64,000 nucleotides of DNA from Dehalococcoidia bacterium (GTDB lineage: Bacteria > Chloroflexota > Dehalococcoidia > Lucifugimonadales > UBA3495). This document shows, one piece after another, positions 1,512 to 20,222 of the stretch. The stretch spans positions 136,349 to 200,348 of the forward strand of contig CBDESR010000002.1 of assembly GCA_965242615.1 (NCBI GenBank), in the 5' to 3' direction. Both the position numbers and the translations under genes were made by a program. Every line of letters starts with the position of its first letter. Position 1 is the first letter of the stretch. The notes below the pieces were generated by a model. It ran no database searches. It was not told the DNA's origin and was given only the letters and a program-made list of their open reading frames with translations.

Positions 1512-1832
1512 CTACCACTTCATCAAGTTCAGTTCGTCCACATTGACCGTGGCCCGATTGCGGTACATCCGCAGGATAATCGCCAACGCCAGCCCCACTT
1601 CGGCGGCCGCGATGGTGATGATGAAAATTGCCAGTATCTGCCCGTCAAAATTGGCGAACAGCCCGTAACCCTCCCGGTGGGACGCGGCGGCAATCAGGTT
1701 GATGTTGACCGCATTCAGCATCAACTCAATAGACATCACAATCAGCACCGCGCTCCGCCGGGCCAGCACCCCGTACAGCCCAATGGCAAACAAGGCCGCG
1801 CTCAACAGCTGAAATGCCACCAACGGTACCAC
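1512..1832 (-). CDS. nuoK: NADH-quinone oxidoreductase subunit K, copy 1
   Basis: ORF 1512..1877 with the NuoK-like core LYGVLARRSAVLIVMSIELMLNAVNINLIAAA. I prefer GTG at 1832-1830, which lies 1 nt after the nuoJ stop TAA (1836-1834). That gives about 106 aa, similar to copy 2 NuoK (109 aa). Confidence 0.85.
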   Translation of the reverse strand: MVPLVAFQLLSAALFAIGLYGVLARRSAVLIVMSIELMLNAVNINLIAAASHREGYGLFANFDGQILAIFIITIAAAEVGLALAIILRMYRNRATVNVDELNLMKW

Positions 1833-1833
1833 T

Positions 1834-2322
1834 TTAAGACCTGTCCTCCCCGCTCCGGGCAATGATAATCGCCCCAATCAATGCCACCAGCAGCACCAGC
1901 GACGCCACCTCAAAGGGAATCGCCCACCGCGTAAAAAGCGAATTAGCCAAGTCGCTGAACGCCGGGCTTTGCGGCGTCGTCCCCGAAACTCCCCGCACCA
2001 AAAACGCCGCCCCCAACACTACCCCCACCCCGGCCGCTGCCGCCACTGCCAACGGCCACTGCCGGTTGTCCGAAATCCGGGGATAGTCCGGTGTTCGCGT
2101 CAGCATAATCGCAAACAGCAGCACGATGATGATGGCCCCCCCGTAAATCAGCACCTGCACCAAGGCCAGAAACTCCGCAAAGAGTATCAGGTACAACCCG
2201 GCCACCGCCACCAGCGAGACCAGCAGAAACAGGGCGGCGTGAACCACATTGCGGGTAACTACCACGCCCAAGCCGCCGCCCAGGGTGAACACCGCCAAGA
2301 CTATGAACAGAAACCAGGACAA
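1834..2322 (-). CDS. nuoJ: NADH-quinone oxidoreductase subunit J, copy 1
   Basis: 162-aa hydrophobic ORF. The segment FAEFLALVQVLIYGGAIIIVLLFAIML parallels copy 2 NuoJ (SAEFLAVVQVLIYVGAISILFIFAIML). Positioned between nuoI and nuoK. Confidence 0.88.
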   Translation of the reverse strand: MSWFLFIVLAVFTLGGGLGVVVTRNVVHAALFLLVSLVAVAGLYLILFAEFLALVQVLIYGGAIIIVLLFAIMLTRTPDYPRISDNRQWPLAVAAAAGVGVVLGAAFLVRGVSGTTPQSPAFSDLANSLFTRWAIPFEVASLVLLVALIGAIIIARSGEDRS

Positions 2323-2406
2323 GGCTCCTTACCCCGCTCCTTTCCGTTTTTCCTTACCGTTACAAACCTATTGCCGGCCCGTCATTCCCGGGCCGGCGCC
2401 AACCCC

Positions 2407-2988
2407 TTACTCCCCGGTCTCCGCCCCGGCCGCCGCCGGTTTCTTTTCCGCAGCAACAGGCGCGGCGGCGGCCGCCGCTTTAGCCGCATCCTCGGCATCC
2501 TTCTTTTGCTTGGCCAACACCGTCGGCGGTATCCACCCCGTTTCCTGCTGGTGTTTCGTACCGATTTCCAGCAGACCCGGCAAGTTCACCCGCGCCCCGT
2601 TGCGCTGATAGGCGCTCATCTCATGCTCGTGGCTCATCACGATGGCGTCAAAGTTGCACACCTCAACACAGATGCCGCACAGAATGCACCGGTTCAGGTT
2701 AATCTCGAAATAGTCCACAATCTTGCGGCGCGAACTCTGCCCCTCGGCGTTCTTGGGGTTGTCCATCATACTGGCCGACATACACTGCGTCGGGCAGTTG
2801 CGGATGCACACCATACACCCGGTACAGTACGGCTCCTCCACGCCATCATCCCAGGTCAACGCCGGAAACCCCATAAACCGCGGCTGTACCGGCGTCGGCG
2901 CCGTCGGATACTGCCGGGTTACCGGTTTCCGCAGCCCGGTAAGGGTCGAAGTCAGGGTCAGAAACATCCCTTTAACGCTGTTCAGCAT
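2407..2988 (-). CDS. nuoI: NADH-quinone oxidoreductase subunit I (2x[4Fe-4S] ferredoxin-type), copy 1
   Basis: Two CxxCxxCxxxC(P) motifs: CTGCMVCIRNCP and CILCGICVEVC. Positioned between nuoH and nuoJ. Has an Ala/Lys-rich C-terminal tail. Confidence 0.9.
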   Translation of the reverse strand: MLNSVKGMFLTLTSTLTGLRKPVTRQYPTAPTPVQPRFMGFPALTWDDGVEEPYCTGCMVCIRNCPTQCMSASMMDNPKNAEGQSSRRKIVDYFEINLNRCILCGICVEVCNFDAIVMSHEHEMSAYQRNGARVNLPGLLEIGTKHQQETGWIPPTVLAKQKKDAEDAAKAAAAAAPVAAEKKPAAAGAETGE

Positions 2989-3007
2989 TGCCGCTACTCC
3001 CTGCCGT

Positions 3008-4135
3008 CTATCCGGCCCGTTGCCCGCTCGACCGCCGCTGTGCCAGCTGCGCCGCCTGCCGCGCCCGCACCTCCGCCACCCGCCGCGCCGGCCCCATCAT
3101 CCGCCGATACACCAGCCAGCCCACTACTGCCAGCCCCGCCAGCGACATCAGCGTCAAACTCCACGCCGGCCACCCGTAAAACAGATACAAAGCCGTGATG
3201 ACGATGGAATAAAAGGACAGCGGTACCATCGCCTTCCACGCAAAAGCCATCAACTGGTCAATCCGCAGCCGGGGGAAAGTCCCCCGAATCCAGAACACCA
3301 CCAGTATAACCGCATAAACCTTGATTAGAAACCACACCACCCCCGGCAACAGCGGCCCCGACCACCCGCCCAGAAACAGCAGCGTCACCAGGGCGGCGAT
3401 GGCAAAGGTATTGATATACTCTGCCAGAAAGAACACCGACCAGTGCGCCCCGCTGTATTCCACAAACGGCCCCCCCACTACCTCCGACTCGGCGTGGTAA
3501 ATGTCAAAGGGCGTCCGTCCCACTTCGGCCAAGCCGGCGATAAAGAATACCACCATCCCCAAGGGCAAAATCAAGGCGTACGGCACCGGATTTTGCTGCG
3601 CCACAATCACCTGCAAATTCAGCGATTGCGCCAGCATCGCCACCGCTACCACTACCATAATCACCGGGATTTCGTAGCTGATTAGCTGTGCCGCCGACCG
3701 CAACCCTCCCAGTACCCCATACTTGTTAGCCGACCCCCATCCCGCCAGCACCAGCCCCAGAATCCCGATAACTGCAAAGGCCGTGATGTAAAACAGCCCC
3801 AAGTCCAGATTCCGCAGTACCAGCCCTTCCGCTCCGGGAATAGTTACCCAAATCATAAAGGCCGACATAACCACGATAACCGGCGCCGCCCAGAAAATCG
3901 CCTTGTCCGCCGAATCCGGAATAATATCCTCTTTCAGGATCAGTTTCACCGCGTCCGCAATGGGCTGCATCAACCCCATCGGCCCGGTGCGCGTCGGCCC
4001 TAACCGCAATTGCAGCCGCCCCAAGGCTTTCCGCTCCAGCCACACCATCGACAGTACCACCACCGATAGCGCCGTGAACATCGCTAGCAGCCCCGCCACC
4101 ATCCACGCCAGATCCGTCAAACTCACCGGCGGCAT
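3008..4135 (-). CDS. nuoH: NADH-quinone oxidoreductase subunit H, copy 1
   Basis: ORF 3008..4201. I prefer the internal ATG at 4135-4133, which overlaps the nuoD stop by 1 nt (TAATG). Polytopic membrane protein with the NuoH-like segments LERKALGRLQLRLGPTRTGPMGLMQPIADAVKL and EVGRTPFDIYHAESE. Confidence 0.9.
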   Translation of the reverse strand: MPPVSLTDLAWMVAGLLAMFTALSVVVLSMVWLERKALGRLQLRLGPTRTGPMGLMQPIADAVKLILKEDIIPDSADKAIFWAAPVIVVMSAFMIWVTIPGAEGLVLRNLDLGLFYITAFAVIGILGLVLAGWGSANKYGVLGGLRSAAQLISYEIPVIMVVVAVAMLAQSLNLQVIVAQQNPVPYALILPLGMVVFFIAGLAEVGRTPFDIYHAESEVVGGPFVEYSGAHWSVFFLAEYINTFAIAALVTLLFLGGWSGPLLPGVVWFLIKVYAVILVVFWIRGTFPRLRIDQLMAFAWKAMVPLSFYSIVITALYLFYGWPAWSLTLMSLAGLAVVGWLVYRRMMGPARRVAEVRARQAAQLAQRRSSGQRAG

Positions 4136-5283
4136 TACCGATCCACCTCCCCCAGCACAATATCCAGCGACCCCAGAATCACCACCGAATCCGCAATCCA
4201 CGAATCTTGCAGCAGATGCTTAATCGCCGCCAAGTTGCAGAAAGAGGGCGGCCGCACCTTCACCCGGTAGGGCCGGTCCGTACCGTTGCTGACCAGATGA
4301 ACGCCGATTTCCCCCCGGGGATTCTCCGACCGCACATACACCTCTCCGGCCGGCGGCCGAATCAGCCGCCGCCCCAGGGACGAAGTCACATTCCCCGCCG
4401 GCATTTGCGCCAACGCCTGCTCCACAATCCGCAGCGACTCGTACATCTCCTGCACCCGTACCCAATGCCGATCCCAGCAATCCCCATCCAAGCCGACCGG
4501 AATATCAAACTCAAACCGGTCATACACCGAATAAGGCTGCGCCTTGCGGACATCATACTCCACCCCGCACCCGCGCAGACACGGCCCGGTCAGCCCGTAG
4601 CCAATGGCATCCTCCCGGCTGATCGCCCCCACATCCTTGAGCCGGGACAGGAAAATCTCATTAAAAGTCAGAATTTTGTCGCTTTCCTCGACATCCGCCC
4701 GCACCACCGGCAGCAAATCCCGAATCAGCTGCTCAAAGTTATCCGGCAGCTCCTCTTTCAGTCCGCCGATGCGGAAATAGTTGTGCATCATCCGCGCCCC
4801 GGACACCGCCTCAAACAAAGCCTGAATCCGTTCCCGCCCCCGAAAAGCGAACATCGTCGGCGTCATCGCCCCGGCGTCCAGCCCGATTGTCCCAACATAC
4901 AGCAAGTGGCTGGCAATGCGGTTCAGTTCACACAGGATAACCCGCACATACTCCGCCCGCTCCGACACTTCCAACCCCATCAGCTGCTCCACCGCCCGGC
5001 AATAAGCCAACTCATTATTAAAGTTAGCCACATAGTCCAGCCGGTCAAACAGGGTAATGACCTGATGGTACTGCTCCCCCTCGCACAGCTTTTCCGAACC
5101 CCGGTGCAGGTAGCCGATATGCGGCTCGACGGCAACGATTTTCTCCCCGTCCACCCACAGCACCATCCGAAATACGCCGTGCGTCGACGGATGTTGCGGC
5201 CCCATATTCAGCAGCATCTCCATCGGCTCGGCGTCAGCCGGCCCGGCGGCAGTGGTGGTTAGGTCCGTGCGGGTCTCTATCAT
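4135..5283 (-). CDS. nuoD: NADH-quinone oxidoreductase subunit D (49 kDa), copy 1
   Basis: 382 aa with NMGPQHPSTHGVFRMVL...HIGYLHRGSEKL...LGSLDIVLGEVDR, the hallmark NuoD N- and C-terminal motifs. SD GGGGAG upstream of the ATG. Confidence 0.93.
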   Translation of the reverse strand: MIETRTDLTTTAAGPADAEPMEMLLNMGPQHPSTHGVFRMVLWVDGEKIVAVEPHIGYLHRGSEKLCEGEQYHQVITLFDRLDYVANFNNELAYCRAVEQLMGLEVSERAEYVRVILCELNRIASHLLYVGTIGLDAGAMTPTMFAFRGRERIQALFEAVSGARMMHNYFRIGGLKEELPDNFEQLIRDLLPVVRADVEESDKILTFNEIFLSRLKDVGAISREDAIGYGLTGPCLRGCGVEYDVRKAQPYSVYDRFEFDIPVGLDGDCWDRHWVRVQEMYESLRIVEQALAQMPAGNVTSSLGRRLIRPPAGEVYVRSENPRGEIGVHLVSNGTDRPYRVKVRPPSFCNLAAIKHLLQDSWIADSVVILGSLDIVLGEVDR

Positions 5284-5304
5284 CGGTCTCCCCGATACCC
5301 TCGG

Positions 5305-5574
5305 TTACAGAAAAGTCAGCCGCGGCTCCTTCGGCGGCGTCACTAGGCTGCTCATCCAAACCTCATCATTGTCATAAAACCCGGCGTCAATCAGCACCGC
5401 ATCCAGGATACCCAGCTCCTCGCAGTCCTCCAGATACGCCCCGATTTCGGCCCGCAGCGCCTGCCGCGCCGCATCCGCGCTGTCCCCAAAGCCGGTAATC
5501 ACCAACTCCGGGCAATACGCTTCCCAGCTGCTCCCCTGCTGCGACTCCTCAATTTGATAGACGATTTTATCCAC
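5305..5574 (-). CDS. Small HicB-fold (UPF0150-like) protein embedded in nuo operon copy 1 (second of a tandem pair)
   Basis: ORF 5305..5682. I prefer GTG at 5574-5572, 4 nt after the upstream TAA (5581-5579). The sequence VDKIVYQIEESQQGSSWEAYCPELVITGFGDSADAARQALRAEIGAYLED... matches the HicB-like antitoxin-fold pattern (aromatic-x-A-x-x-P-x-L...G-x-[ST]-x-x-x-A...L). The stop is 21 nt before the nuoD start. Confidence 0.6.
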   Translation of the reverse strand: MDKIVYQIEESQQGSSWEAYCPELVITGFGDSADAARQALRAEIGAYLEDCEELGILDAVLIDAGFYDNDEVWMSSLVTPPKEPRLTFL

Positions 5575-5578
5575 GCGG

Positions 5579-5836
5579 TTACTCCACGAACTGCAATTGC
5601 AGCTCCGTATACTCCTCCACTCCCGGAAACCCGGCTTGCGCCAGCGTCTCCTCCAGCGCGCTTTTCCCGTCCTGAACCTCAATCCAGGAACGCATCAGGC
5701 TAATCAAATTGTCCTGGGCTTGGGCGGCGGTTTCCCCCTCGGCTTCCAGCTCCAAGGCGTCCAGGCGGGCGATATAGCGGCCGTCGGACTGCTGCACTTG
5801 GGCGGTCAAAACCGTTGGCTCGAGGATTGGCGTCAC
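5579..5836 (-). CDS. Small HicB-fold-like protein embedded in nuo operon copy 1 (first of a tandem pair)
   Basis: 85-aa ORF starting at GTG 5836, 5 nt after the nuoC stop TAG (5844-5842). The segment ...DGRYIARLDALELEAEGETAAQAQDNLISLMRSWIE...LAQAGF aligns with the downstream paralog (...WEAYCPELVITGFGDSADAARQALRAEIGAYLE...LIDAGF). Confidence 0.55.
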   Translation of the reverse strand: MTPILEPTVLTAQVQQSDGRYIARLDALELEAEGETAAQAQDNLISLMRSWIEVQDGKSALEETLAQAGFPGVEEYTELQLQFVE

Positions 5837-5841
5837 TGTTG

Positions 5842-6381
5842 CTAAAACTCCCGGTACTCGTAAAAGGGAAACTCTTTCCGCCCCGGAAAGCCCTCAAACC
5901 CTTCATACAGCAGCAGCGGCGCCTCGTCCGGATTCCCCTCGAAAGAGACTCCGAACAAATCCCGCGCTTCCCGCTCGTACCATTCCGCCGCCGGCCAAAT
6001 CCCCGCCACCGACGGCAGGCGCGGGTCAGCATAAGGCACCTCGGCCTTGATGACCAGCATCCCCGCGGTCTCAATGGAATGGAGAAAATAAACCAGCTGA
6101 AAATAGCTTTCGTAGTCCACGCAGGAAAGACAATGCAGCATCGTCAGCGCCAACCGGGCATCCTCTTTAGCCCGCCGGCACGCCCGCTCAATCGCCGCCG
6201 CCGCCATTTTCACCTGCGGTAGGTCTCCCAATACGCCCGGCTCGGGATCCAAGTCCCCCAGAACTTCCTGCGCCGCCGTCAGCGTTTCCCGCCCCCGGTC
6301 CGACAGAACCGAATAGTCGGGTTGCGCGGCGGCATCCCCGGCTTCCCCGTGGCCGGCGGCTTGTCTAGTTGCCGCTGCCAC
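5842..6381 (-). CDS. nuoC: NADH-quinone oxidoreductase subunit C (30 kDa), copy 1
   Basis: ORF 5842..6492. The C-terminal two thirds are NuoC-like: [21 protein letters not shown]...[30 protein letters not shown]...[17 protein letters not shown], which parallels copy 2. The start is uncertain. GTG at 6381 would overlap the nuoB end by 17 nt, and the upstream part of the ORF overlaps nuoB in another frame. Confidence 0.8.
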
Positions 6382-6898
6382 TCTTGGCGTCCTGCATAAT
6401 CTTTTCCTGAAGTTTAAGGATACCGAACAGCAGCGCCTCCGGCCGCGGCGGACATCCCGGCACATAAACATCCACCGGGATGATATGGTCAACCCCCATC
6501 ACCACCGAATAGGAGCGGTAATAAGGGCCGCCATTCGTAGCGCAACTCCCCATCGCGATAACCCACTTCGGATCCGGCATCTGCTCGTACAGCAGGCGGA
6601 TAGGCTCCGCCATTTTCTTGACCACCGTCCCCGCCACAATCATCACATCCGACTGCCGCGGCGACGGCCAGGTCACTACCCCGAACCGGTCGAAATCGTG
6701 ATGCGCCATATAGGTGGAAATCATCTCGATGGCGCAGCAAGCCAAGCCGAAACTCAGCATCCACAGCGACGACTTGCGGGACAGGGCGAAAAGCTGCTCG
6801 CTGGTAGTGGTAATCACCCCCGGCGCCCTGCCAGACATAGCCTGATTCAACAGACTCGGCGCCGGCCGATTCCCCGGCCCCAGAATTATTTCTGCCAT
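6365..6898 (-). CDS. nuoB: NADH-quinone oxidoreductase subunit B (20 kDa, N2 cluster), copy 1
   Basis: ORF 6365..7021. I prefer ATG at 6898-6896 (MAEIILGP...). Motifs: [24 protein letters not shown] and [11 protein letters not shown]. Confidence 0.92.
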
Positions 6899-7281
6899 TC
6901 CAGAACCCCTTTCCGCCAGCCGTAAATGATGGCAAAGAACAGCACCCCCAGAAACAGCAGCATCGCGTAAAAGGGAATGGCATTCCCCAAATCCCGCTGC
7001 TCCAGAAAGATGACCGCCCACGGAAACAGAAACACCGCTTCCACATCAAAGATGAGGAACAGAATGGCGAAAATGTAGAACCGCAGGTTGATATTCGACC
7101 AGGAAAAGCGCGCCGGTACGATGCCGCATTCGTAGGTCGAGAGTTTCGTCGGGTTAGGGCGGCGCGAGGACAGAATGCGGGAAGCCAGAAACATCCCCCC
7201 GATAGCCACCAAGGCGACAATGGCGGCGAGAGCCACCATCGTCCAGTTGCCGAAAAACAGGTTAGGGTCGAAAGTCTGCAC
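6886..7281 (-). CDS. nuoA: NADH-quinone oxidoreductase subunit A, copy 1
   Basis: ORF 6886..7344 with the NuoA core [12 protein letters not shown]...[23 protein letters not shown] prefer GTG at 7281-7279. First, a strong promoter (-10 at 7335-7340) falls inside the longer ORF. Second, this start puts the YECG motif at the same distance from the N-terminus as in copy 2 (53 vs 54 residues). The alternative start is 7344. Confidence 0.8.
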
Positions 7282-7334
7282 TTCAGATACCGCCGGCCGG
7301 GTAAAATCCCCCGCTGGGAAAGATAACGGGGGTA

Positions 7335-7363
7335 ATAATAGCACTGGCGGGAAAGGGTGTCAA
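7335..7363 (-). promoter_or_regulatory. Sigma-70-type promoter of nuo operon copy 1
   Basis: The minus strand reads TTGACA (7363-7358), a 17-nt spacer, then TATTAT (7340-7335). This is a near-consensus hexamer pair about 50 nt upstream of the preferred nuoA start. Confidence 0.6.
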
Positions 7364-7530
7364 TTGTGATTCCGCCTAGTATTCTTATCATTAAAGTAAC
7401 AAAAGGAACCGTCGGCCCTGTCCTTCCCCCGGCATTGTTTCAGAAAGTGTTGGGAGGGAGCGGATTGCAAAAAGGCTGAACCGCCGTAGAATGGATTAAG
7501 CTCAAATCAGTTCTCCGGACGGTTCAACCG

Positions 7531-7857
7531 ATGCTTATCTTAAAACTAGCCGAGCAGCGTGTCCAGACCCAGCCCCTCCCGCCGCAGCGGTGTTCCGGTT
7601 GTGGCGGTCAAACCTGGCAAAAGTGGGGCGGTCAGCGGCAGCGCGCTTTAACTGATGTGCAGATCAAACGCATCCGGACCCAACGCTATCGGTGCGTGGC
7701 TTGCGGCAAAACCACCACGGCCCGGCCGTTGGGAGTCGGCCGGGGCCGGCGCAGCCAGCCCTTTACCGCCCTGCTGGGGATGTTGTATGCCCTGGGCTTG
7801 AGCACCGGGGTATTGAGGTCATCGCGGGTCTGCTGGGCTATTCGGTGGACCATGTGA
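7531..7857 (+). CDS. IS orfA: Zn-finger/HTH N-terminal part of the transposase
   Basis: CSGCGG...(26 aa)...CVACGK is a CxxC...CxxC zinc ribbon, followed by a helix-turn-helix-like FTALLGMLYALGLS. The frame then runs into a stop, and the sequence continues sensibly in the -1 frame (orfB). Confidence 0.65.
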   Translation: MLILKLAEQRVQTQPLPPQRCSGCGGQTWQKWGGQRQRALTDVQIKRIRTQRYRCVACGKTTTARPLGVGRGRRSQPFTALLGMLYALGLSTGVLRSSRVCWAIRWTM

Positions 7858-8531
7858 CCAGTTGGCGGGAAGTGCAGCGGTTGGGCCGGGCGGTGCGGCG
7901 GCGACTGCCGGCGGGCCGGGTGCGGATAGTAGGAGTGGACGAAACCTGGCTGCGGGTGCGCGGTAAATCCCGGCCGGTGAGGGTGGTAGTGGGCCGGGAC
8001 GGGCGTATGGTGGGATTGAAGTTGACCGGCCCGGGCTTTGACTATGGGCAATGGTTCCAGGAATTGGCGGAGCAGCTGGGGGTGGCAGTGGTGGTAACCG
8101 ATGACGCCAGCGAATATGCCGGGCCCATTGCGGACGCCGGGCTAGGGCGTCCGCAATGTATGGCGCTTATGCAGCGCACCTTGGGTCGTTGGAAAGGACG
8201 CCTGAAACTGGACTTGCGGGAAGCTTGGGGGGAATTGCTGGCGCAAATGTCCCAACTGGTCAAGGAGTTGCCCGCCGATGGTGCTGCGCGGTTGCACCAT
8301 TGGGCCCGAGACCCGGCCTTGCCTCGGGAGTTGCGCCGGTTGGCGGTGCATTTACCGGAACGCTGGCGACAGATGACCTTGCATCAAAGAGAACCCGGAG
8401 TACCCAATAGCACTAATTGGCTGGAGGGACGGTTCGGACGGATTAAACCCCGCTATCGGTTGCCCCGGGGGCTGAAAAGCGCCGCCGGGGCGGCTAACTT
8501 TATGGCGGTGTTGGGCGATGTATTGAAATAG
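7692..8531 (+). CDS. IS orfB: DDE transposase catalytic part
   Basis: Candidate DDE triad context: VGVDETWLRV, VVVTDDASEY and NSTNWLEGRFGRIKPRYRLPRGLKSAAGAANF (N-x-x-E-G-x-x-x-x-I-K...R motif, as in ISL3/IS1-type transposases). The homology-bearing part starts near HRGIEVIAGLLGYSV, which joins orfA at about 7800-7815. Confidence 0.7.
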   Translation: MRGLRQNHHGPAVGSRPGPAQPALYRPAGDVVCPGLEHRGIEVIAGLLGYSVDHVTSWREVQRLGRAVRRRLPAGRVRIVGVDETWLRVRGKSRPVRVVVGRDGRMVGLKLTGPGFDYGQWFQELAEQLGVAVVVTDDASEYAGPIADAGLGRPQCMALMQRTLGRWKGRLKLDLREAWGELLAQMSQLVKELPADGAARLHHWARDPALPRELRRLAVHLPERWRQMTLHQREPGVPNSTNWLEGRFGRIKPRYRLPRGLKSAAGAANFMAVLGDVLK

Positions 8532-8614
8532 GCCAGCGACTGTTGACCGCCTAACCCGACCGCCGCCCGGACTGCCAACATTTTTGGGAACAGTGCCAGT
8601 CGGGCTCGGCCAAG

Positions 8615-9858
8615 TTGGAGCACTTTGAGCTTTTTACTGGGCAAAGGGACTTGGAGAGGGTTTTCGCGGAGTTGAACTTGCCATCCTTAGCTCAGAGATT
8701 AGAACCAGAGTGCCCCGACCCGAGGGGGCGGCCGCGGTACTCGCGGTTGGCGTTTCTGCAGGCCTTTTTCCTGGCTAGGGCCAGGGGCTGGGAGAGCACG
8801 GCGCAATTGGTAAGGGAGTTACAGTTGAACGCGGCATTTGCATATTTCTGCGGCTTCACGGAAGTGGGCGTCGGACAGGCTGTCGTTATCAGGGTACCGC
8901 ATCGGACTACTTTCTCCCGGGCCTTTGCCGAGGTTTGCCGAGGGCTTCCTCTGTTGGAAGCCCAGCTCCGAGAGATTGCGCGGGAGTACGCTTCCCTTGT
9001 CGAGGGTTTCGGGGAAGATTTAGTAGTAGATGCTTCGGTTGTGCCGACCAATGCCAACCCTACTAAGCGGCCTAAGGGCGGGCTGTCCCGGTATACTGAT
9101 CCAGATGCCGGCATTGCGGTGAAGAACTCGCCGCGTTCTCTGGACGGCAAGGTAAAAGTACTTGGCTACAGCTGTCATTCGGCAGTGGATGCGAAGACCG
9201 GTTGTTTGCTGGACCTGGTAGTTTCGCCGGGCGGAGTCCATGAAACGACATTGCTGGGCGGGGTGGTTGACCGACTGCTGGAGCGGCATCCGCAACTGCC
9301 TTTCCGTTCTTTGATTACCGACCGGGGCTACGACTCCAAGCTGAATAACGAGATGTTGTATAAGATAGGGATTAACCCGGTGATTCACAAGCGGCGGCCG
9401 CGGGGAGGAGGCTTGCACGACGGGATTTATACTACCGAAGGGACTCCTACTTGTGTCGGCAGGCAACCAATGATTTTGCGGGTACCGACCCGCGGACCAA
9501 GCAGCGGTTGTATCGGTCTTCTCCAGAAGGCTGTCATTTGAAAGGCCAGGTTCTGTTCACCAGGTTCTGCGATAGTGAGGTAAGGGTGAACCCGGAGGAT
9601 GACATTCGTCTGTTCGGAGGCGCGTTGCGTCGGGACGGGACGGAGTGGCGGGCCAAGTACCGGATGCGCTGGACGGTGGAGCGGCTGTTTTCCGAGTGGA
9701 AAAGGGAGGGGCATATCGAGCGACACCATTTCCGGGGGAAGGATAAAATCGAAACTCTGGTTATCCTTCAAGCCGTGTTCTCAGCAGCCAAAGTTTTGAG
9801 TCGGTTGCGTCAGGGAGAGACTGCCGGGCTGCATCGGGGGATATGGACGGTAAAGTGA
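8615..9858 (+). mobile_element. IS4/IS5-superfamily transposase gene, split by a -1 frame change (8615..9541 and 9451..9858); probably inactivated
   Basis: The N-terminal part resembles the InsH-type N-terminal domain (RGRPRYSRLAFLQAFFLARARGWESTAQLVRELQLNAAFAYFCGF). DDE region: VVDASVVPTN, LITDRGYDS. The C-terminal Y-x2-R-x3-E-x6-K-type motif (YRMRWTVERLFSEWKREGHIERHHFRG) is found only in the second frame. The junction is near 9465-9480. I could not define the element ends. Confidence 0.7.
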
Positions 9859-9981
9859 GTGCGGGTCACGGAAACGTGTCTTGGCGAGTGATTAGTCGCC
9901 TGTCCCAAGCGATCGGAACTGTCTGAAGGCATGTCGGGGTAGTCTGGGTGTTTGATTTAGACAAGGACTTTATGTTTTACG

Positions 9982-10012
9982 GGGCGTCTTAAAGACGTCC
10001 TGTATTTTTGTG
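9982..10012 (+). terminator. Hairpin plus T-run (possible intrinsic terminator or IS-end remnant)
   Basis: GGGCGTCTT-A-AAGACGTCC can pair (with one G-U), followed by TGTATTTTTGTGG. Lies in a conspicuously A/T-rich noncoding stretch (9860-10190). Confidence 0.35.
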
Positions 10013-10190
10013 GCGCGATGCCAGTATTTTCAGATTCTGGAGAATTACGGATTTCGTCACAATAGGTTAATAATTTTCTTGAGGTGCTGTTTTTTGCACT
10101 GAGCTAACGCCGCGTCTCCGGCTTGACGCCGGCACCTTTTCTGCTTATCCTTACCTTGAAAATCGGCATCCTGACATTTAAGGAGCAGCT

Positions 10191-10622
10191 ATGACGCAGC
10201 AAGCCGCCCCCGCCATTACGCCGCCGGTGCCGCAGCCGGAGTCGGATTTCTATTGGGAGAAGTGCCAGGAGCATCAGTTGTGGCTGCGGTACTGCCGGGA
10301 CTGCAACACCGCCTACTTCTACCCCCGGGATCTTTGCCCGGCGTGTTTTTCCCGCAACACCGCCTGGATCCAGAGCAGCGGGCGCGGCACGGTGCACACT
10401 TTCTGCATCGTCCACCGGGCGCCCACGCCGGCTTTCCGCGACCGGACGCCCTATGTGCCGGCGGTGGTGGAACTGGACGAGGGCGCGCGCATCTGCACCA
10501 ACCTGGTGGAAGTGGCGCCGGAACCGACCGCCATCCGCTGCGGTATGGCCGTGGAAGTGGTCTTTGAGGATTTGACCGACGCCATCAGCCTGCCCAAGTT
10601 CCGCCCGGCGGCGACGGCATAG
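10191..10622 (+). CDS. Zn-ribbon/OB-fold protein (DUF35 family)
   Basis: 143 aa. LRYCRDCNTAYFYPRDLCPACFS is a four-Cys rubredoxin-like ribbon, followed by an OB-fold-like GRGTVHTFCIVHRA...YVPAVVELDEGARICTNLV. Strong SD AAGGAG before the ATG. Confidence 0.75.
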   Translation: MTQQAAPAITPPVPQPESDFYWEKCQEHQLWLRYCRDCNTAYFYPRDLCPACFSRNTAWIQSSGRGTVHTFCIVHRAPTPAFRDRTPYVPAVVELDEGARICTNLVEVAPEPTAIRCGMAVEVVFEDLTDAISLPKFRPAATA

Positions 10623-10677
10623 CAACTCCGGGCAATACCCGGCCCAGTACCCCAAAATGCAATCCGGAGGAAGGATT

Positions 10678-10983
10678 ATGACTACCCCCAATCCGGCGCG
10701 GGAAGTCGCCCCGAAAATGGCGGAACTCAGTGCCAATGTCCTCTTTGGCGATGTTTGGGAACGCCCGGAGCTGTCCAAGCGGGACCGCAGCCTGATTACC
10801 GTGGCTACCTTGGTGGCTTTGTACCGCACCGACCAGCTGCGCGGCCATATCAACCGCGCCCTGGACAACGGCGTTACCCAAGAGGAAATTGGCGAGGTCA
10901 TCACTCACATTGCCTTTTACGCCGGCTGGCCGACCGCCGCCAATGCCGTGCGGGTGGCTAAAGAAGTTTTTGACTCCCGGTAG
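10678..10983 (+). CDS. Carboxymuconolactone decarboxylase (CMD/AhpD-like) family protein
   Basis: ORF 10657..10983. I prefer ATG 10678, preceded by GGAGGAAGG. Family-typical segments: FGDVWERPELSKRDRSLITVATLVAL...EEIGEVITHIAFYAGWPTA. Confidence 0.75.
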   Translation: MTTPNPAREVAPKMAELSANVLFGDVWERPELSKRDRSLITVATLVALYRTDQLRGHINRALDNGVTQEEIGEVITHIAFYAGWPTAANAVRVAKEVFDSR

Positions 10984-10996
10984 GCGCAAATCCCGG

Positions 10997-11866
10997 TCAG
11001 CCCCTTCCCCTTAAACCGGCGATTACCTGCTGCGCCGCCGCATAGTTGCGCCGGCCGCCGGGTAGGATACCCGGCACCAGGTAGATGTTCAGTAACCCGG
11101 CGGCGCGGAAAGCGGCGTACAGTTCCAATGCCTGGTCCACGGGAGAACGCCCGGCGGCGATTTCCGCCCAAGCCGCCGCCGGCGTGGGGCCAAAGGCAAT
11201 CCCGCCCGGCTCTAAAATCTGCAATCCATAAAAAACCGGCGCCGGCAACCGCTCCCCGGCAAGGGCGGCGTAAGCCTCTTGAAACCGTATAGCAATTGCT
11301 GGGTCATAAATCGGCTGGGTGATGAGGAAATGGGCCCCGGCGGCGATTTTGCGGCGGGTCAACCTTACTTCCCGTTGCCAGTCCCGGCCCAAGTCGACGG
11401 TAGCGCCAATGCAAAAGTCGGTAGGCGCAACCAGTTCAGCATTGCGGAAATCCCGCCCCCGGTTCAGCGCGGCTATAGCGGCGATTAGTTCCGTAGGCCG
11501 GTAATCGGCAACGGTTAGCGGCCGTCCCGGGTCGGCGGGATGGAACGGGTCGCCGGCGGCCACCACTACATTGCTCAACCCCAACAACTGCGCCCCCAAT
11601 AGCTGGGATTGCAGGGACAAGCGGTTCGCGTCCCGGGTAATCAGGGTAAAAGCCGTTTCCCGCCCGGTCTGCCGCCGGATGTGCGCCGCGACCATCGCGG
11701 AGTCGGCCCGCACCGCCCGGCCGGGGCAGTAGCCCACCAGCAGAAAGTCGGCATCCGGGAAAGACTCGGGCAAGTCCGCCGCATTGCCGGAACGCGGCGG
11801 GGAAATATCACAGATGATTACCGGCCGCCCGGCCGTTTCCGCGCAGCCGTCGGTAACTTTTACCAT
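10997..11866 (-). CDS. Methylenetetrahydrofolate reductase (MetF)-like TIM-barrel protein
   Basis: ORF 10997..12139. I prefer ATG 11866 (MVKVTDG...), after the upstream gene stop at 11902. Resemblance to the MTHFR family comes from pattern recall (ICDISPPRSG..., LLGLSNVVVAAGDP, AGAHFLITQPIYD). Not verified by alignment. Confidence 0.5.
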   Translation of the reverse strand: MVKVTDGCAETAGRPVIICDISPPRSGNAADLPESFPDADFLLVGYCPGRAVRADSAMVAAHIRRQTGRETAFTLITRDANRLSLQSQLLGAQLLGLSNVVVAAGDPFHPADPGRPLTVADYRPTELIAAIAALNRGRDFRNAELVAPTDFCIGATVDLGRDWQREVRLTRRKIAAGAHFLITQPIYDPAIAIRFQEAYAALAGERLPAPVFYGLQILEPGGIAFGPTPAAAWAEIAAGRSPVDQALELYAAFRAAGLLNIYLVPGILPGGRRNYAAAQQVIAGLRGRG

Positions 11867-11901: not shown

Positions 11902-12651
11902 TTAACTTTCCAGCTTTTCCAGATATTCCCGGAAAATCCGGATGGACTTCTGCTCCGACATCCCCAAGTAGTAGCGGATACCCTGCACATACTCCACCAC
12001 ATCCCGGGGCAGCATCAGCAGGTTCTCCCGGGGTTCGGAAATGTGGTACAAGTGGTCCACGCCATCCTCCAACCCCACATAAAGGGTATCCTCGAGGATG
12101 GCTAACGATTTGGAATCCACATCGGTACGCGCCATCCAACGGGCGATGACCAAAGGCAGGCGCAACCAGTTATACCACTCCTCGCCCAAGTCGTAGCGGT
12201 GGGGAAAGCCGCGGGCGCCCCGCCGCTGCCGCAAGCCGGCATCGCCGCTGACCACAAAGGCGGTATGCTCCTCCTGCCGGGATACATAGGCTTGCGGCCG
12301 GATGGCGTACTTCTGCTCCAGCAGCACCCGCAGCAGCTGCCCCGCCGTTACCGACTCCGCGGGAATGGCAATGCGGGCGTCAGTCAGTTCGGCGATGGGA
12401 CTTTGGGAATAGAGGAACATACTGCCGGCCCGGTCGGTGCTGGCAATGCAAAACCCGCCGACCGGCTGAAAAATGCCCTCTTTGCCGAAAGTGTCCACAA
12501 TCGGCACCGGGGCGGCGTCGATAAGCCCCTGCTCCAGATCGGCGGCCGCCCGCTGCGGCGTGGTATCCACCAGTTGCAGCCCCCGCCGCACCGTGTCAAA
12601 GTAAAAGGGTTCGCAAATCATATAGGGGACACGCCCCACTTTCAGCGTCAT
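11902..12651 (-). CDS. MqnA/MqnD-like (periplasmic-binding-protein fold, futalosine-pathway family) protein
   Basis: ORF 11902..12714. I prefer ATG 12651 (MTLKVGRVPYMICEPFYF...), the typical N-terminus of the MqnA/DUF178 family. Assignment is by pattern recall only. Confidence 0.5.
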   Translation of the reverse strand: MTLKVGRVPYMICEPFYFDTVRRGLQLVDTTPQRAAADLEQGLIDAAPVPIVDTFGKEGIFQPVGGFCIASTDRAGSMFLYSQSPIAELTDARIAIPAESVTAGQLLRVLLEQKYAIRPQAYVSRQEEHTAFVVSGDAGLRQRRGARGFPHRYDLGEEWYNWLRLPLVIARWMARTDVDSKSLAILEDTLYVGLEDGVDHLYHISEPRENLLMLPRDVVEYVQGIRYYLGMSEQKSIRIFREYLEKLES

Positions 12652-12766
12652 ACACCGTTCCCAACTTTCAGATTCCGGCTGGTCGGCTACCGATTCTAGG
12701 GAAACTCCGTCCACTGGTCAAGGGAATAGCCGGCAAGCCAGGGTTTCCCTTGGGCTAGGGACTGGA

Positions 12767-13804
12767 TTAGGCGGGTTTGGCAGCCGCCGCAACGACTTCG
12801 GCAATATGCCGCAAGCTGTCCACCACGCTGTTCAAAGCTTCCGAGTACTCGACCTCCCTTTTCAGGTTGACCGGCGCATAATCATCGTGGGTTGCTCCCA
12901 ACTGGGCGCGTACCTGGTCCATATCGAGCTTGCTCAGGTCGTCGACAAATCGCACCCACAAGGGAGATTCACCGGTACTCTCGAACCGTTCCAATTGGAT
13001 TCCGAACCAGACCCAAGCTAATCCGGAAAGATGGATGTAGCGGCCATATTCTCCGCTGTACCGCATTACCCGCGAGCCTTTCCGGCTGGCCCAACCTTCC
13101 TCAACCCCGCGCCAGGTAGCCCCTTCAATCAGCTGCTCGAAGTCCCGCTTACGCTGTTCCGAATCCTCCCCAACCAGCTCATCCCGAAGGATAGGCTTGA
13201 AAACTCCCGTACCCGCATAGCGGGCAAGACTTCGCAATTGCCGGATTTCGACGCCGATGCCGGCCGGTTCCTCAGCGTCACCGGAGCGGGCTGCCATACT
13301 GTCCAGCAAACCCGTCCAACTGACGAGCATCAAATGACGCTGGGTGTCGCCAATACGAAAGCACTTGCGCTCCGCTTCAGCCAAGGCCAGGGCGTATTGA
13401 CCCTCGACACGGCCGCGCAATTCAGGCCAAAGCCACCTAATCCGGTCATCCGGCGCAAGAAACACCAGCGCCGCCGGGCCATCATCCGGCAACCGGTTAA
13501 GGTAGGCATTGGGCTGATTGTCGGTAAGGCCGGCCCAGAATTTGACCTCGACAATTACCCGTTCTTTCTGTTCATCATCGAAGCCAACCATATCGGGAAT
13601 CGAGCTGCCGGCGTCAAGTACCTGCGTCCGCACGGCCTTAATCGGCTTTACACCCCGGACGCCGGACTGAACTACTTCGTTCAACGCCTCGATAGAGGCG
13701 TAGGAGTTCGCCAAGATGTGGGCTAGGGCTTCCGTAGCAATATCCTCCTGGTTCCCGGGAAACCGCCCCGCCAGGTGCGCCAACAAAGTATCGCTCTCCG
13801 CCAT
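12767..13804 (-). CDS. PD-(D/E)XK nuclease-like hypothetical protein
   Basis: ORF 12767..14116. I prefer ATG 13804, preceded by a strong SD AAGGAGG. The long N-terminal extension overlaps the upstream gene. IPDMVGFDDEQKERVIVEVKFWAG fits the PD...(D/E)xK restriction-endonuclease-fold motif. The C-terminal 200 aa have no recognisable domain. Confidence 0.6.
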   Translation of the reverse strand: MAESDTLLAHLAGRFPGNQEDIATEALAHILANSYASIEALNEVVQSGVRGVKPIKAVRTQVLDAGSSIPDMVGFDDEQKERVIVEVKFWAGLTDNQPNAYLNRLPDDGPAALVFLAPDDRIRWLWPELRGRVEGQYALALAEAERKCFRIGDTQRHLMLVSWTGLLDSMAARSGDAEEPAGIGVEIRQLRSLARYAGTGVFKPILRDELVGEDSEQRKRDFEQLIEGATWRGVEEGWASRKGSRVMRYSGEYGRYIHLSGLAWVWFGIQLERFESTGESPLWVRFVDDLSKLDMDQVRAQLGATHDDYAPVNLKREVEYSEALNSVVDSLRHIAEVVAAAAKPA

Positions 13805-13902
13805 CAGAAACCGCCTCCTTGAAAATGTCAGGTTTAGTTTAACCGCCCCGCGCCGGTTGAGCAAACCGGCCGGGGCCGCCAAGTTCCGGTTGGGCCGGGT
13901 TG

Positions 13903-14283
13903 CTACTCCCGGGCCGGTTCCGCCGGGTAGTTCTCCCGCATCCCGGTGTCGCCGGGCTGCACCACGAAGTCCCGGCGATCCCGGTACAGCCGGGCCCGGT
14001 TCAGCACATAGTCCCCGCCATCCCGGTAGGGGTCGATTTTGGCGTAGTCGTCCATCAGCCAATACTTGTGGTCGCCGATGAACAGGTAGGTGTTCCGCAT
14101 CGTGAAAAAGCGGCAAGCCACCCCTTCGCAGGCCCGGAACCGGGCGCAGACCGCCGCCAGCAAATCCCGCTGGTCATCCTTTTCGGTCAGCACATACTCG
14201 TGCGGCCAGGTTTCCCGGTAAGTAACCGCCTCCCGCCAGGGGGCAGCGGCAATCAGCCCGGTCAAGTTCAGTTCGGCATCCAT
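13903..14283 (-). CDS. Hypothetical protein (126 aa)
   Basis: ORF with SD GGGAGAGG and ATG 14283. Normal-looking composition and no overlapping better ORF. No domain recognised. Confidence 0.55.
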   Translation of the reverse strand: MDAELNLTGLIAAAPWREAVTYRETWPHEYVLTEKDDQRDLLAAVCARFRACEGVACRFFTMRNTYLFIGDHKYWLMDDYAKIDPYRDGGDYVLNRARLYRDRRDFVVQPGDTGMRENYPAEPARE

Positions 14284-17118: not shown

Positions 17119-18046
17119 CTCCCAATCGAATGCGCGGGTCCAGCACCGGGTAAATCAAATCCACTACCAGATTCGCCAGCACGAACATGGTAGTTGCCAA
17201 TAAAGTAACTGCCATGATTATGGGGTAATCTCGCGCAAAAAGGGACTCCACGGTTAATCGACCTACTCCGGGGATACCGAAGTAAAGCTCTATTACCAGT
17301 GAGCCGCCGAATAGCCCCGCTAGAGAAAATCCCAACGTAGTTGCTACTGGAATAAGAGAGTTCCGCAGGATGTGCCGCACCCGCACCAACCGCTCCGGCA
17401 GCCCCTTAGCCCGGGCCGTGCGGATGTAATCTTGTCCAATGCAATCCAAGGTGCTGGCACGGGTCAGTCGTGCCAGTCCAGCAACAGCAGGGATACCCAA
17501 CAGAAAAGCCGGCATAATGGTAGTGGTCGAAAAGAACCCGTCCCAGCCGTGGCTGGGCAGCCAGCCCAAGCGTAGGGAAAAGATATACAAGGCAATGGGG
17601 ATGGTCAGAAACAAGTGCATGGACTGACCGACTAGGGCCAGAGAAACGGTTGCGCTGTCCCACCAAGAACCTTGTCGCAAAGCCGCAAAGAGCCCGGCAG
17701 GAATTCCTATACTCATCGCAATAATAAAAGCCGCCAGGTTCAACTGAGCCGAGACCCAAATGCGGTTTTTCAGCAATTCAGTTACGCTGCGGCCCCGGTA
17801 CTGGTAGCTCTCCCCGAAGTCCCCCCGCAAGACATTCCCCAAGTAGCGGACATACTGGGTGGCAATGTCGTCATCCAGCCCCTGCACGGCCCGAATCCGC
17901 TGGGCCACTTCCTCGCTGAAGTGCTGCCCCAGCAGGATTTCCACCGGGTCGCCCGGCCCAAAGCGGCCCAAGGCAAAGGTAACAAAGGTCGTAATCAGCA
18001 ACAGAACCGGCACCCACAGCAGCCGGCGCGCAATGTAAGTACCCAC
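17099..18046 (-). CDS. ABC transporter permease (DppB/OppB-like)
   Basis: 315 aa. Typical N-terminus MGTYIARRLLWVPVLLLITTFVTFAL and EAA region DYIRTARAKGLPERLVRVRHILRNSL. Confidence 0.87.
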   Translation of the reverse strand: MGTYIARRLLWVPVLLLITTFVTFALGRFGPGDPVEILLGQHFSEEVAQRIRAVQGLDDDIATQYVRYLGNVLRGDFGESYQYRGRSVTELLKNRIWVSAQLNLAAFIIAMSIGIPAGLFAALRQGSWWDSATVSLALVGQSMHLFLTIPIALYIFSLRLGWLPSHGWDGFFSTTTIMPAFLLGIPAVAGLARLTRASTLDCIGQDYIRTARAKGLPERLVRVRHILRNSLIPVATTLGFSLAGLFGGSLVIELYFGIPGVGRLTVESLFARDYPIIMAVTLLATTMFVLANLVVDLIYPVLDPRIRLGGDYIAG

Positions 18047-18076
18047 GCTTTGCTCCCCTTGCCCCGGGCCGCTTGG

Positions 18077-19939
18077 CTACCCCTGCTCCATCCAGATGTA
18101 GCGGAACTTGGGTATCGTCATCGGCAGCAGCAGGTAATCGTGGACTTGGGGCTTGACCAGGAAGTACCAATCCTCATCGTTCCACAGCAGCACCCAAGGG
18201 GCATCCTCCAGGATCTGCCGCTCGATGTCCTGGTACATTTGCAGGCGGGTCGCCGGATCCCGTTCTACCGCCGCTTGCTCCAACTGGGCGTCCACTTGCG
18301 GATTGCTGTAGCTGGTGTTGTTGCCCTCGCTGTCGCTGTGGAACAGGATGTCCAGGAAGTTCTGCGGGTCGGGATAGTCCGCCCCCCAAGCAATGGAAAA
18401 CATCTGAAGTCGTTTCTGGTTCACATCCTGCAGGAAAGTAGCCCATTCCGTTTGCTGAATTTCCACCGGCAAGCCCAACTCCTCCTGCCAGGAATTGAGG
18501 ATTACCTCCAAGCCCAAAGGCACCGCCGCCCCGAAACTGCCGGTGATGCTCAAAGTCATCCGCGGCAGGTTGTCCAAGTCATCCCCGTACTTGGATTGGC
18601 CCAGCAGTTCCCGGGCCAAATCCGGGTTATAGGGGTAGGGATCCAGGTCCGGGTTGTAGCCCGGAAAGCCCGGCGGCAGGATGGTCTTGGCCGGCCGCAC
18701 CGCCCCCTCGTAGGCGATTTCCGCAATGCTCGCCCGGTCGATGGCCAAGTTCAACGCCTTGCGGAAGTTGGCATCGTCCAGCGGCGGCTCGTTCACATTC
18801 AACCCGATGTAACTGACGCTGAACCGGGCCGGATAGGGTTTCACCTGGGCGTTCAAGGGACTGGTCGGATCCAACACCCGCTCCAAGTCGGGCAAGCCCA
18901 CGCCGGTCACATCAATTTCATCATTCTCATAGAGAATCATCCGCGACCCGCCGCTGAGAATCATCTCCACTTCGTCCAGATGCGGCGGCCCCAAGTGATA
19001 GTATTCGTTGCGCGCCAGCCGCAGGGTCTCGCCGACCGTATACTCGGCCAAGCGGAACGGCCCGGTGCCGTTAGGTTCCTGAATCCAATCCTCGCCGCCC
19101 TCGACATTGGACTGGTCGAGGACAAAACTGGTGGGATAAGTCAGCTTGGACAGGAAATAGGCTTTGGGGGCGTCAACAGTAAGGGCTACGGTGCGGTCGT
19201 CAATGACCCGCACGCCGGAAACTTCGCTGACGGCCCCACTAAGCTTGTCGGAAACGCCAACAATGTCGCTGAGGTACTGATCCACCACCGGGGAAAGGGT
19301 ATCCGGGTCGGCTACCCGCTCCAGAGACCATTTCACATCCTGAGCCGTAACCGCCTTGCCATCGTGGAACCGGGCTTCCGGGCGCAGGTAAAAGGTGTAG
19401 GTAGTCCCATCCTCGCTGATTTCCCAGCGTTCCGCCAAATCCAGCGCCACCGAAAAGTTGAACGGCTCAATAGTTACCAGCCCGCCGAACACTTCGTTGA
19501 CCAGCAAGCCGGAGCGGCTGTCCTCCGCCAAGTGCGGATCCAAAGTCGGCGGGTCGGCAAAGAGCAACCGCAAAGTGCCGCCATCGGTAGCCGTGCCGTT
19601 GCCGCTGTTAGCCGGCCGGGTGCCGGGAACAAAATCACCACCGCCGCCATTGCCGCCGGACGCCGCCGGGGCGGCAGTCGCTACCGCTTCCCTAGGCGCA
19701 ACCGTCATCGCCGGAACCGCCGTAGGCACCGCCTCGATGGCCGGAGCCGCCGCGCCCGGCGTACCCGAAACAGAGCCGCCGCCGGCCGCGCCATCAGTAA
19801 CCGCCGGTGCCGCAACAGTGGCCGCGGCGGGCGCCCTTTCAACGACTTCCGCCGCCGGCGCCACCGCCGGAGTATTCCCGCTGCACCCCGCCAGGAAAAG
19901 AGCCACCAAGGCCGGGAGTATCAGAGCTTTCCAACCCAT
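18077..19939 (-). CDS. ABC transporter substrate-binding lipoprotein (family 5, peptide/nickel)
   Basis: ORF 18077..20005. I prefer ATG 19939 (SD GGAAGG), giving MGWKALILPALVALFLAGCSGN with lipobox LAGC. A long Ala/Gly/Pro/Thr-rich linker is followed by an SBP family-5 body (...FADPPTLDPH..., ...RNEYYH...). Confidence 0.85.
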   Translation of the reverse strand: MGWKALILPALVALFLAGCSGNTPAVAPAAEVVERAPAAATVAAPAVTDGAAGGGSVSGTPGAAAPAIEAVPTAVPAMTVAPREAVATAAPAASGGNGGGGDFVPGTRPANSGNGTATDGGTLRLLFADPPTLDPHLAEDSRSGLLVNEVFGGLVTIEPFNFSVALDLAERWEISEDGTTYTFYLRPEARFHDGKAVTAQDVKWSLERVADPDTLSPVVDQYLSDIVGVSDKLSGAVSEVSGVRVIDDRTVALTVDAPKAYFLSKLTYPTSFVLDQSNVEGGEDWIQEPNGTGPFRLAEYTVGETLRLARNEYYHLGPPHLDEVEMILSGGSRMILYENDEIDVTGVGLPDLERVLDPTSPLNAQVKPYPARFSVSYIGLNVNEPPLDDANFRKALNLAIDRASIAEIAYEGAVRPAKTILPPGFPGYNPDLDPYPYNPDLARELLGQSKYGDDLDNLPRMTLSITGSFGAAVPLGLEVILNSWQEELGLPVEIQQTEWATFLQDVNQKRLQMFSIAWGADYPDPQNFLDILFHSDSEGNNTSYSNPQVDAQLEQAAVERDPATRLQMYQDIERQILEDAPWVLLWNDEDWYFLVKPQVHDYLLLPMTIPKFRYIWMEQG

Positions 19940-20222
19940 AAACAACCTTCCAGTCAAAATCAGGAAATGGATAACGTATAATGAATAGGGTTCCTGTCCC
20001 CCCAAGAACGGTCAACTTACGGTTCCGGACCATCTACATCAACTTACCCCCGGCATTATAGTAGCTGCCCCCGTTGATAGCAACTTTTATAAGGGAACTA
20101 TATGCCCTGCTACCGGACAACTTGAAACTTCGCTTTTGCGGTTAAGCCGGCAAAGCCTATGGGAAATAGTATATAATTCCCTAACTAAAGGATACCCCAT
20201 CCACCATACCGGAGGCGCCGCT

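Follow-up and report, generated by a model that had tools for sequence, protein, structure and literature searches.

The nuoC-nuoD junction of operon copy 1

The stretch analysed here is a 64,000-nucleotide (nt) part of contig CBDESR010000002.1 from a Dehalococcoidia bacterium (assembly GCA_965242615.1, positions 136,349 to 200,348), referred to below as the window and numbered from its first letter. It contains two nuo operons for an 11-subunit complex I. In copy 1, two small open reading frames (ORFs), here called X1 and X2, fill the junction between nuoC and nuoD. X1 (5836-5579, minus strand) encodes 85 amino acids (aa) and X2 (5574-5305, minus strand) 89 aa. Both begin with GTG and end with TAA, and both products are acidic and HicB-derived. 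X2 carries two invariant cysteines, Cys21 and Cys51, and a conserved tail, AGFYDNDEVWMSSLVTPPKEP. The junction is bounded by nuoC (5842-6381, minus strand; Pfam Complex1_30kDa, E=3.7e-33) and nuoD (5283-4135, minus strand; 382 aa; Pfam Complex1_49kDa, E=3.3e-95). For nuoC we give the 179-aa form, the length called in relatives; the mechanical ORF reaches 6492, beyond that form.

An earlier note on this DNA, made from the sequence alone, had described two tightly embedded ORFs with spacers of 5, 4 and 21 nt, and this layout is exact. The nuoC stop TAG (5844-5842) is followed by 5 nt (caaca) and the X1 GTG at 5836; the X1 TAA is followed by 4 nt (ccgc) and the X2 GTG at 5574; the X2 TAA is followed by 21 nt, ccgagggtatcggggagaccg, which include GGGGAG, and then the nuoD ATG at 5283. 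Shine-Dalgarno-like GGAG or GGGAG lies ahead of all three starts. X1 and X2 share the orientation of nuoC and nuoD, with 4-21 nt between one gene and the next. On three other metagenome contigs with an identical X2, the layout recurs and the called genes again encode 85 aa and 89 aa. A consensus scan found no convincing promoter or terminator within the junction, and an Rfam scan of 4000-8000 matched no RNA family.

The visible part of copy 1, delimited by ORFs, self-tblastn and the gene calls of relatives, spans 1512-7344 on the minus strand and comprises nuoA, B, C, X1, X2, D, H, I, J and K. It runs on leftward into nuoL; in relatives the called order is A-B-C-X1-X2-D-H-I-J-K-L-M-N. From the ORF list, all on the minus strand, nuoH occupies 4135-3008, nuoB ends at 6365, and the longest nuoA ORF covers 7344-6886, a 117-aa form being called in relatives. 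A promoter-like site at 7335-7363 (minus strand; TTGACA, a 17-nt spacer, TG and TATTAT; 11/12 matches, from a consensus scan only) overlaps the start codon at 7344, the first in the longest nuoA ORF, and lies upstream of the 117-aa start. No nuoE, F or G is present between nuoD and nuoH of copy 1, and none was found in either operon or among the large ORFs of the window.

Copy 2 lies at 37394-48327 on the plus strand and contains nuoA, B, C, D, H, I, J, K, L, M and N, recognised by tblastn with copy-1 proteins at 31-64% identity. Its nuoB is at 37814-38452, its nuoC at 38452-38895, and its nuoD ATG is near 38921 (plus strand, from ORFs). The nuoC-nuoD junction is about 25 nt long and, by tblastn and an ORF check, holds no X-like ORF, in agreement with the earlier note.

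X1 and X2 resemble single-domain HicB antitoxins

Pairwise BLASTP of X1 against X2 gave no similarity. Profile-profile comparison does relate them, with a probability of 95% and E=2e-8 over 69 collinear columns, and the hidden Markov model (HMM) of each matches the ORFs of the other. By these comparisons the two are distant paralogs; paralogy had been proposed from the sequence alone. For X1, X2 is not a nearer relative than the toxin-antitoxin (TA) outgroup described next, so profiles do not distinguish a tandem duplication after capture from two separate captures.

An exhaustive profile search with X2 recovered a tight X2 group and, around it, a large halo: proteins of 80-120 aa that share the motif ...Y.A.CPEL.VSSFGDT.EEA...L.EA...FLEECE..GTLEEVLEEAGF...W..P.... 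This halo family (about 88 aa) comprises more than 2,100 clusters from many phyla, is named HicB family antitoxin by NCBI, and weakly matches UPF0150, HicB_lk_antitox and DUF7387. It aligns end to end with both X1 and X2. In hhalign against the HicB-type family, X2 scored 99.8% (E=2e-27) and X1 97.6% (E=4e-12). Homologs of X2 are themselves listed by some sources as "HicB family antitoxin" or as "RNase H-like HicB family nuclease".

Standard family models respond far less. In the Pfam scan X1 reached 14.7 bits with UPF0150 against a cutoff of 27.3 and X2 had no HicB-type match; the scan gave only sub-threshold UPF0150 and PHD_like, plus a chance match to Phage_sheath. NCBIfam gave no match to either protein at E up to 1, and a few X1 orthologs carry a precomputed PF21748 match. 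Pfam found no domain of the DNA-binding ribbon-helix-helix (RHH) or helix-turn-helix (HTH) type in X1 or X2, and the TA-linked outgroup of about 88 aa likewise has none.

In all inspected non-nuo contexts of the halo family (L090, L091, L092 with two pairs, L093 and L121), a HicA_toxin ORF directly follows the HicB-like gene, giving six pairs at five loci. At nuo loci, X2 is directly followed by nuoD or, in a few relatives, by unrelated insertions. A HicA HMM run over six frames recovered HicA in all control loci and found nothing in the 64-kb window or in 89 nuo loci. Because of the profile homology, the hicA pairing of the relatives and the absence of hicA at nuo loci, X1 and X2 are toxin-less derivatives of a single-domain HicB antitoxin. 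The pair derives from a TA system whose toxin was lost while these genes were retained. The earlier note had stated that the pair is not a TA insertion. Its observation that no HicA-like toxin is present holds in every frame of the window, while its conclusion on origin does not, as X1 and X2 belong to a hicA-paired HicB family of about 88 aa.

Predicted structures and charge

AlphaFold2 (AF2) modelled X2 with a pLDDT (predicted local distance difference test) of 86.8, as four short strands, helices at 33-54 and 57-63, and a hairpin at 66-75, with low confidence in the tail. The X1 model (pLDDT 86.3) has three strands and a long helix spanning 37-67, and its tail is coil. Against the PDB, Foldseek found its tightest superpositions with HicB N-domains and UPF0150 proteins (6g1c, 6g1n, 6g26, 3k6q and 2yzt), at a root-mean-square deviation of 1.5-2.4 Å over 46-51 residues and a Foldseek probability of 0.89-0.99, with E values all above 0.03; no PDB match reached E<=1e-3. 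Weak PDB sequence matches were to 2yzt and HicB chains. Matches to double-stranded RNA-binding domains also appeared and were attributed to a generic alpha/beta layout. The models of both proteins thus have a HicB-like beta-beta-beta-alpha core, a partial RNase-H-like fold, in line with the HicB/UPF0150-type fold suggested earlier.

Both proteins have an isoelectric point (pI) near 4.1 and a net charge of about -13 per protein, and this holds family-wide. The N-domain of HicB in HicAB systems serves to bind protein: it holds HicA, which is small and basic (structures 6g26 and 4p78).

Distribution and selection

A pattern scan with one genome per species found 100 species with an X2 relative, of which the best 80 were kept. 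All 80 are titled Dehalococcoidia, Chloroflexota or SAR202 metagenome-assembled genomes. The closest reference genome among them is OZ251531.1, with 97-98% identity to the window. The first-gathered set comprises 86 loci from these 80 reference species and was found via X2, so its counts describe X2-bearing operons. By tblastn, the order nuoA-B-C-[X1]-X2-D-H is kept in 86/86 loci. HMM searches found X1 and X2 both intact in the same 86/86, and in 80/80 reference species. The gap between X1 and X2 is 1-172 nt (median 28 nt), throughout too short for another gene. Many residues of the two proteins are invariant even between species with NuoC identities of only 43-60%.

In a large protein collection X2 homologs form 284 clusters, most of those listed being exactly 89 aa, and X1 homologs form 48. 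Environmental metagenomes, marine and sponge-associated ones among them, contain the locus repeatedly. The exhaustive profile search also surfaced a divergent marine X2 subgroup (P0171-P0176), traced as loci L094-L120. In 27 of 28 marine loci the order nuoB-C-X1-X2-D is found wherever the contig reaches; the lone exception, L121, is a hicB-hicA pair. Such regular occupation of one junction, in 86/86 first-gathered and 27 of 28 marine loci, goes far beyond chance. X2 proteins of the divergent subgroup still lie between X1 and nuoD. Their N termini are extended by Lys-rich or strongly acidic stretches, and FYFDGE.W.SNEV.P replaces FYDNDEVWMSSLV.P. X1 varies too: in L055, L078, L083 and L084 its second strand is followed by about 25-30 inserted aa.

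Copy-1 NuoD is 78-92% identical to the NuoD of relatives' X-containing operons and 48% identical to that of copy 2. X1 and X2 are inherited strictly with the copy-1 operon type, and in the window they are specific to copy 1.

We compared the ratio of nonsynonymous to synonymous substitution rates (dN/dS, omega) over 582 species pairs by the NG86 method. Median values were 0.02 for NuoB, 0.07 for NuoD, 0.12 for X2, 0.17 for NuoC and 0.25 for X1. As dS is near saturation (median 1.0-1.6) the values are rough, and we rely only on their order and on omega being well below 1. By this ranking X2 is more conserved than NuoC. The earlier note had held that decay or loss of the ORFs in syntenic relatives would speak against its reading; instead, both are intact in every one of the 80 species, with dN/dS of 0.12-0.25.

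Among 81 species-level X2 sequences, 23 positions are invariant. They include Cys21, Cys51, most of 61-68 (L, I, A, G, F, Y, D), W73, S75, P80 and P84. The two cysteines are present in 81/81 X2 sequences, variable in the TA outgroup and absent from X1. The most conserved block of X2 is C-terminal (61-80) and is modelled by AF2 with lower confidence; that of X1 is also C-terminal (71-80) and is modelled as coil. Segments that are conserved but modelled with low confidence suggest a binding segment, as is typical of folding on a partner. Intact reading frames in all loci, dN/dS and invariant residues together show X1 and X2 to be genuine genes, constrained to a degree comparable with a core subunit. 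The pair is under purifying selection comparable to that on core subunits of the complex.

Insertions and neighbours of the copy-1 operon

Several relatives carry additional genes within the operon. In L001 (= L007; OZ251531.1), genes for a D12-class DNA methyltransferase and an HNH-domain protein are inserted between X2 and nuoD (8381-11245 of that locus). There nuoD is called as two ORFs of 174 aa and 190 aa, which suggests a frameshift, an assembly error or an inactivated operon. L078 has extra ORFs in the nuoC-X1 and X2-nuoD spacers (2530-3408 and 4275-5149), which by eye resemble an MNT-like nucleotidyltransferase and a HEPN-like protein. Extra ORFs, including one of 324 aa, are found in L055 (4382-5356 and about 2070-2450), and the nuoA/nuoB junction carries an insertion in L055 and L069. 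From these sequences, intergenic sites of copy-1-type operons look like hot spots for the insertion of selfish genes.

At least 45-61 of the 80 reference loci (L002, 2537-5961) share a conserved block upstream of nuoA, in the same orientation. Its members are a PD40/Tricorn-like protein, a 191-aa Flavin_Reduct (PF01613) protein and a protein of about 390 aa that is cytidylyltransferase-like and perhaps CinA. None of these genes occurs anywhere in the 64-kb window. We considered the PF01613 flavin-reductase-like protein as a donor module and rejected it: it lies upstream of nuoA in at least 45/80 relatives and is absent from the whole window, and therefore is not obligatorily linked to the operon. 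In the window, transposase-like ORFs at 7531-9858 stand directly upstream of the copy-1 nuoA promoter region and replace the upstream neighbours seen in relatives. A DDE_Tnp_1/DUF772 match covers 8615-9541, and the flanking ORFs are at 7531-8531 and 9451-9858.

Copy-1 NuoI (2407-2988, minus strand) ends in a low-complexity Ala/Lys/Glu-rich C-terminal tail (...AKQKKDAEDAAKAAAAAAPVAAEKKPAAAGAETGE), and NuoI length among relatives ranges from 165 to 198 aa. It is pure speculation, if conceivable, that this partly basic tail is a partner of the acidic X proteins.

Downstream of copy 2 come genes for an NAD kinase (48415-49287), for a succinate dehydrogenase/fumarate reductase flavoprotein (49983-51662) and for a CCG/HdrB-like protein (52678-53562; region to 54347). 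A VitK2_biosynth gene (MqnA-like, futalosine pathway) at 11902-12714 on the minus strand is consistent with a respiratory chain that uses menaquinone. Elsewhere in the window are a monomeric isocitrate dehydrogenase (PF03971; 58881-61127, minus strand) and a luciferase-like monooxygenase (27645-28844, minus strand). Long ORFs of 449, 769 and 862 aa (12767-14116 on the minus strand and 17672-23479) had no Pfam match at E<=1e-5.

Relation to known systems

Single-domain HicB antitoxins, such as TTHA1756 (2yzt) and the Burkholderia pseudomallei HicB N-domain (6g1c/6g26), are like X1 and X2 in their length of about 88 aa, their collinear architecture, their profile homology and a predicted beta-beta-beta-alpha core of about 50 residues. 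Many HicB proteins, not all, also carry a C-terminal RHH or Xre-HTH domain, which X1 and X2, at 85 and 89 aa, do not have. Whereas HicB is otherwise part of a mobile two-gene cassette, X1 and X2 have no hicA partner and are fixed in a respiratory operon. They differ further in being two diverged tandem paralogs, in being much more conserved while remaining below Pfam gathering thresholds, and in the invariant cysteine pair and C-terminal motif of X2.

Accessory subunits of complex I are known from other bacteria. In Thermus thermophilus, Nqo15 and Nqo16 are lineage-specific small accessory subunits on the peripheral arm, encoded outside the nqo operon, and Nqo15 has a frataxin-like fold. No T. 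thermophilus complex I chain was among the top 50 Foldseek matches of X1 and X2. The cyanobacterial NDH-1 subunits NdhM, N, O, S and V are small soluble proteins on a core of 11 subunits without NuoE, F and G; NdhM stabilises the module equivalent to NuoB/C/D/I, and NdhS, V and O form the ferredoxin site (PMC10272980). The layout of NdhM, three strands and two helices, is reminiscent of X1 and X2, a loose topological resemblance only. Homology to NdhM, N, O or S was not supported by any Pfam match at E up to 1 or by any PDB sequence match. The Ndh proteins are specific to oxygenic photosynthesis and occur in plastids too, and X1 and X2 differ from them in lineage, in their origin from a TA antitoxin, and in that their association with the complex is one we infer.

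A parallel in gene arrangement is offered by Campylobacter and Helicobacter, in which Cj1575c and Cj1574c (NuoX and NuoY) are also two small lineage-specific genes in a nuo operon without subunits that oxidise NADH. Their proposed role is in the entry of electrons from flavodoxin and not NADH (PMC4178425). Cj1575c and Cj1574c fill the nuoE and nuoF slots in operons that keep nuoG, whereas X1 and X2 lie between nuoC and nuoD where there is no nuoE, F or G; nothing points to homology. By analogy, NdhM, N, O, S and V and Cj1575c/Cj1574c may be functional analogues of X1 and X2.

For the 11-subunit complex I, published accounts give the electron donor as unknown and additional subunits as "not excluded" (PMC3144371, PMC11238625). 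A 2025 survey of accessory subunits of complex I in prokaryotes covers mitochondrial-type subunits only (PMC12361115). The earlier note knew of no such subunit, and in our literature searches no paper turned up that mentions HicB-like genes within nuo operons.

A probable exapted pair and its alternatives

The explanation that we favour, with limited assurance but as the probable one, is that X1 and X2 stem from an ancient hicB capture and were exapted to serve the 11-subunit complex I, as an accessory subunit or in its assembly. A hicB(A) cassette would have been captured at the nuoC-nuoD junction in the ancestor of a large Dehalococcoidia lineage that includes SAR202. The HicA partner would then have been lost and two diverged single-domain HicB copies kept. 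The products may work together, probably as an X1-X2 heterodimer, to form a small and very acidic module for protein binding, in which the core that formerly gripped HicA and the conserved C-terminal tails would bind the peripheral-arm module NuoB/C/D/I. X1-X2 would either belong to the complex, as a stoichiometric supernumerary subunit, or help to assemble or stabilise it, and might shape the entry site of the electron donor. An accessory, assembly or donor-docking role is a reasonable reading because of the operon position, the strict co-occurrence and the pattern of selection. A more specific version, in which X1 and X2 are two exapted peripheral-arm subunits whose heterodimer forms or gates the donor docking site, possibly via the cysteine pair of X2, we regard as decidedly unlikely.

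Several observations weigh against an accessory role. No subunit of complex I, NDH-1 or hydrogenase was among the top 50 Foldseek matches, and searching PDB sequences with a profile of X1 and one of X2 gave nothing meaningful and no solved complex I relative. A charge of about -13 on each protein argues against simple electrostatic docking of an acidic ferredoxin or flavodoxin, and no cofactor-binding motif was found in either protein besides the two cysteines of X2. The position in the operon could be a frozen accident of insertion, the junction being a visible insertion hot spot. Both the physical association of the pair with the complex and its role there are what we infer.

Other functions can be drawn from the same origin. 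X1 and X2 could be orphan antitoxins, an anti-addiction or immunity module against HicA-type RNase toxins encoded elsewhere in the genome or brought by plasmids or phages; the nuo location would then be the landing site of an ancestral hicBA cassette, followed by vertical inheritance. Their closest relatives are indeed genuine HicB antitoxins, each with hicA next to it, their acidic charge suits binding of a basic HicA, and the junction has repeatedly received selfish genes in relatives. HicA and HicB are described by Makarova et al. as strictly paired, and solo TA genes, antitoxins included, are common and may be exapted (PMC2701414). Yet the same work finds TA components normally patchy, mobile and fast-evolving (PMC2701414), whereas X1 and X2 occupy one constant junction wherever a locus spans it, and the conservation of X2 exceeds that of NuoC. 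There is also no hicA within 64 kb, and two diverged paralogs are both kept. That the cysteines vary in the outgroup and never in X2 suggests a new constraint. We therefore consider orphan antitoxins unlikely on balance.

Another reading is a regulatory or sensor module, in which the X2 cysteine pair could act as a thiol or metal switch tuning the assembly, turnover or activity of the complex, or X1 and X2 could sequester another small basic protein whenever nuo is expressed. Being co-transcribed with a redox enzyme, as judged from the gene layout, would suit such a module, as would the restriction of the invariant cysteines to X2 (81/81, neither in X1 nor constant in the TA outgroup). Two cysteines alone, however, bind no standard cofactor, the proteins have no DNA- or RNA-binding domain, and a pI of 4.1 argues against nucleic-acid binding; such a module seems quite improbable. 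It might finally be supposed that the ORFs are spurious, or a functionless, decaying TA remnant, as the TA-family origin and the absent toxin would allow. With both ORFs intact and of near-constant length in every covering locus, a dN/dS of 0.12-0.25 and many invariant residues, this is effectively refuted.

The HicB family and complex I accessory subunits were both already known. What is new here is a putatively domesticated HicB subfamily that is at the same time a candidate lineage-specific accessory pair of complex I. For about 300 protein clusters, the label "type II toxin-antitoxin system HicB family antitoxin" in some public annotation is misleading. X1 and X2 are concrete, testable candidates for lineage-specific subunits of a widespread complex I without NuoE, F and G. 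If exaptation is the true account, they would be a clean, datable example of a TA component domesticated into core energy metabolism. Were the docking-site version to hold, it would show how the 11-subunit complex I of a bacterial group that is among the deep ocean's most abundant is fed.

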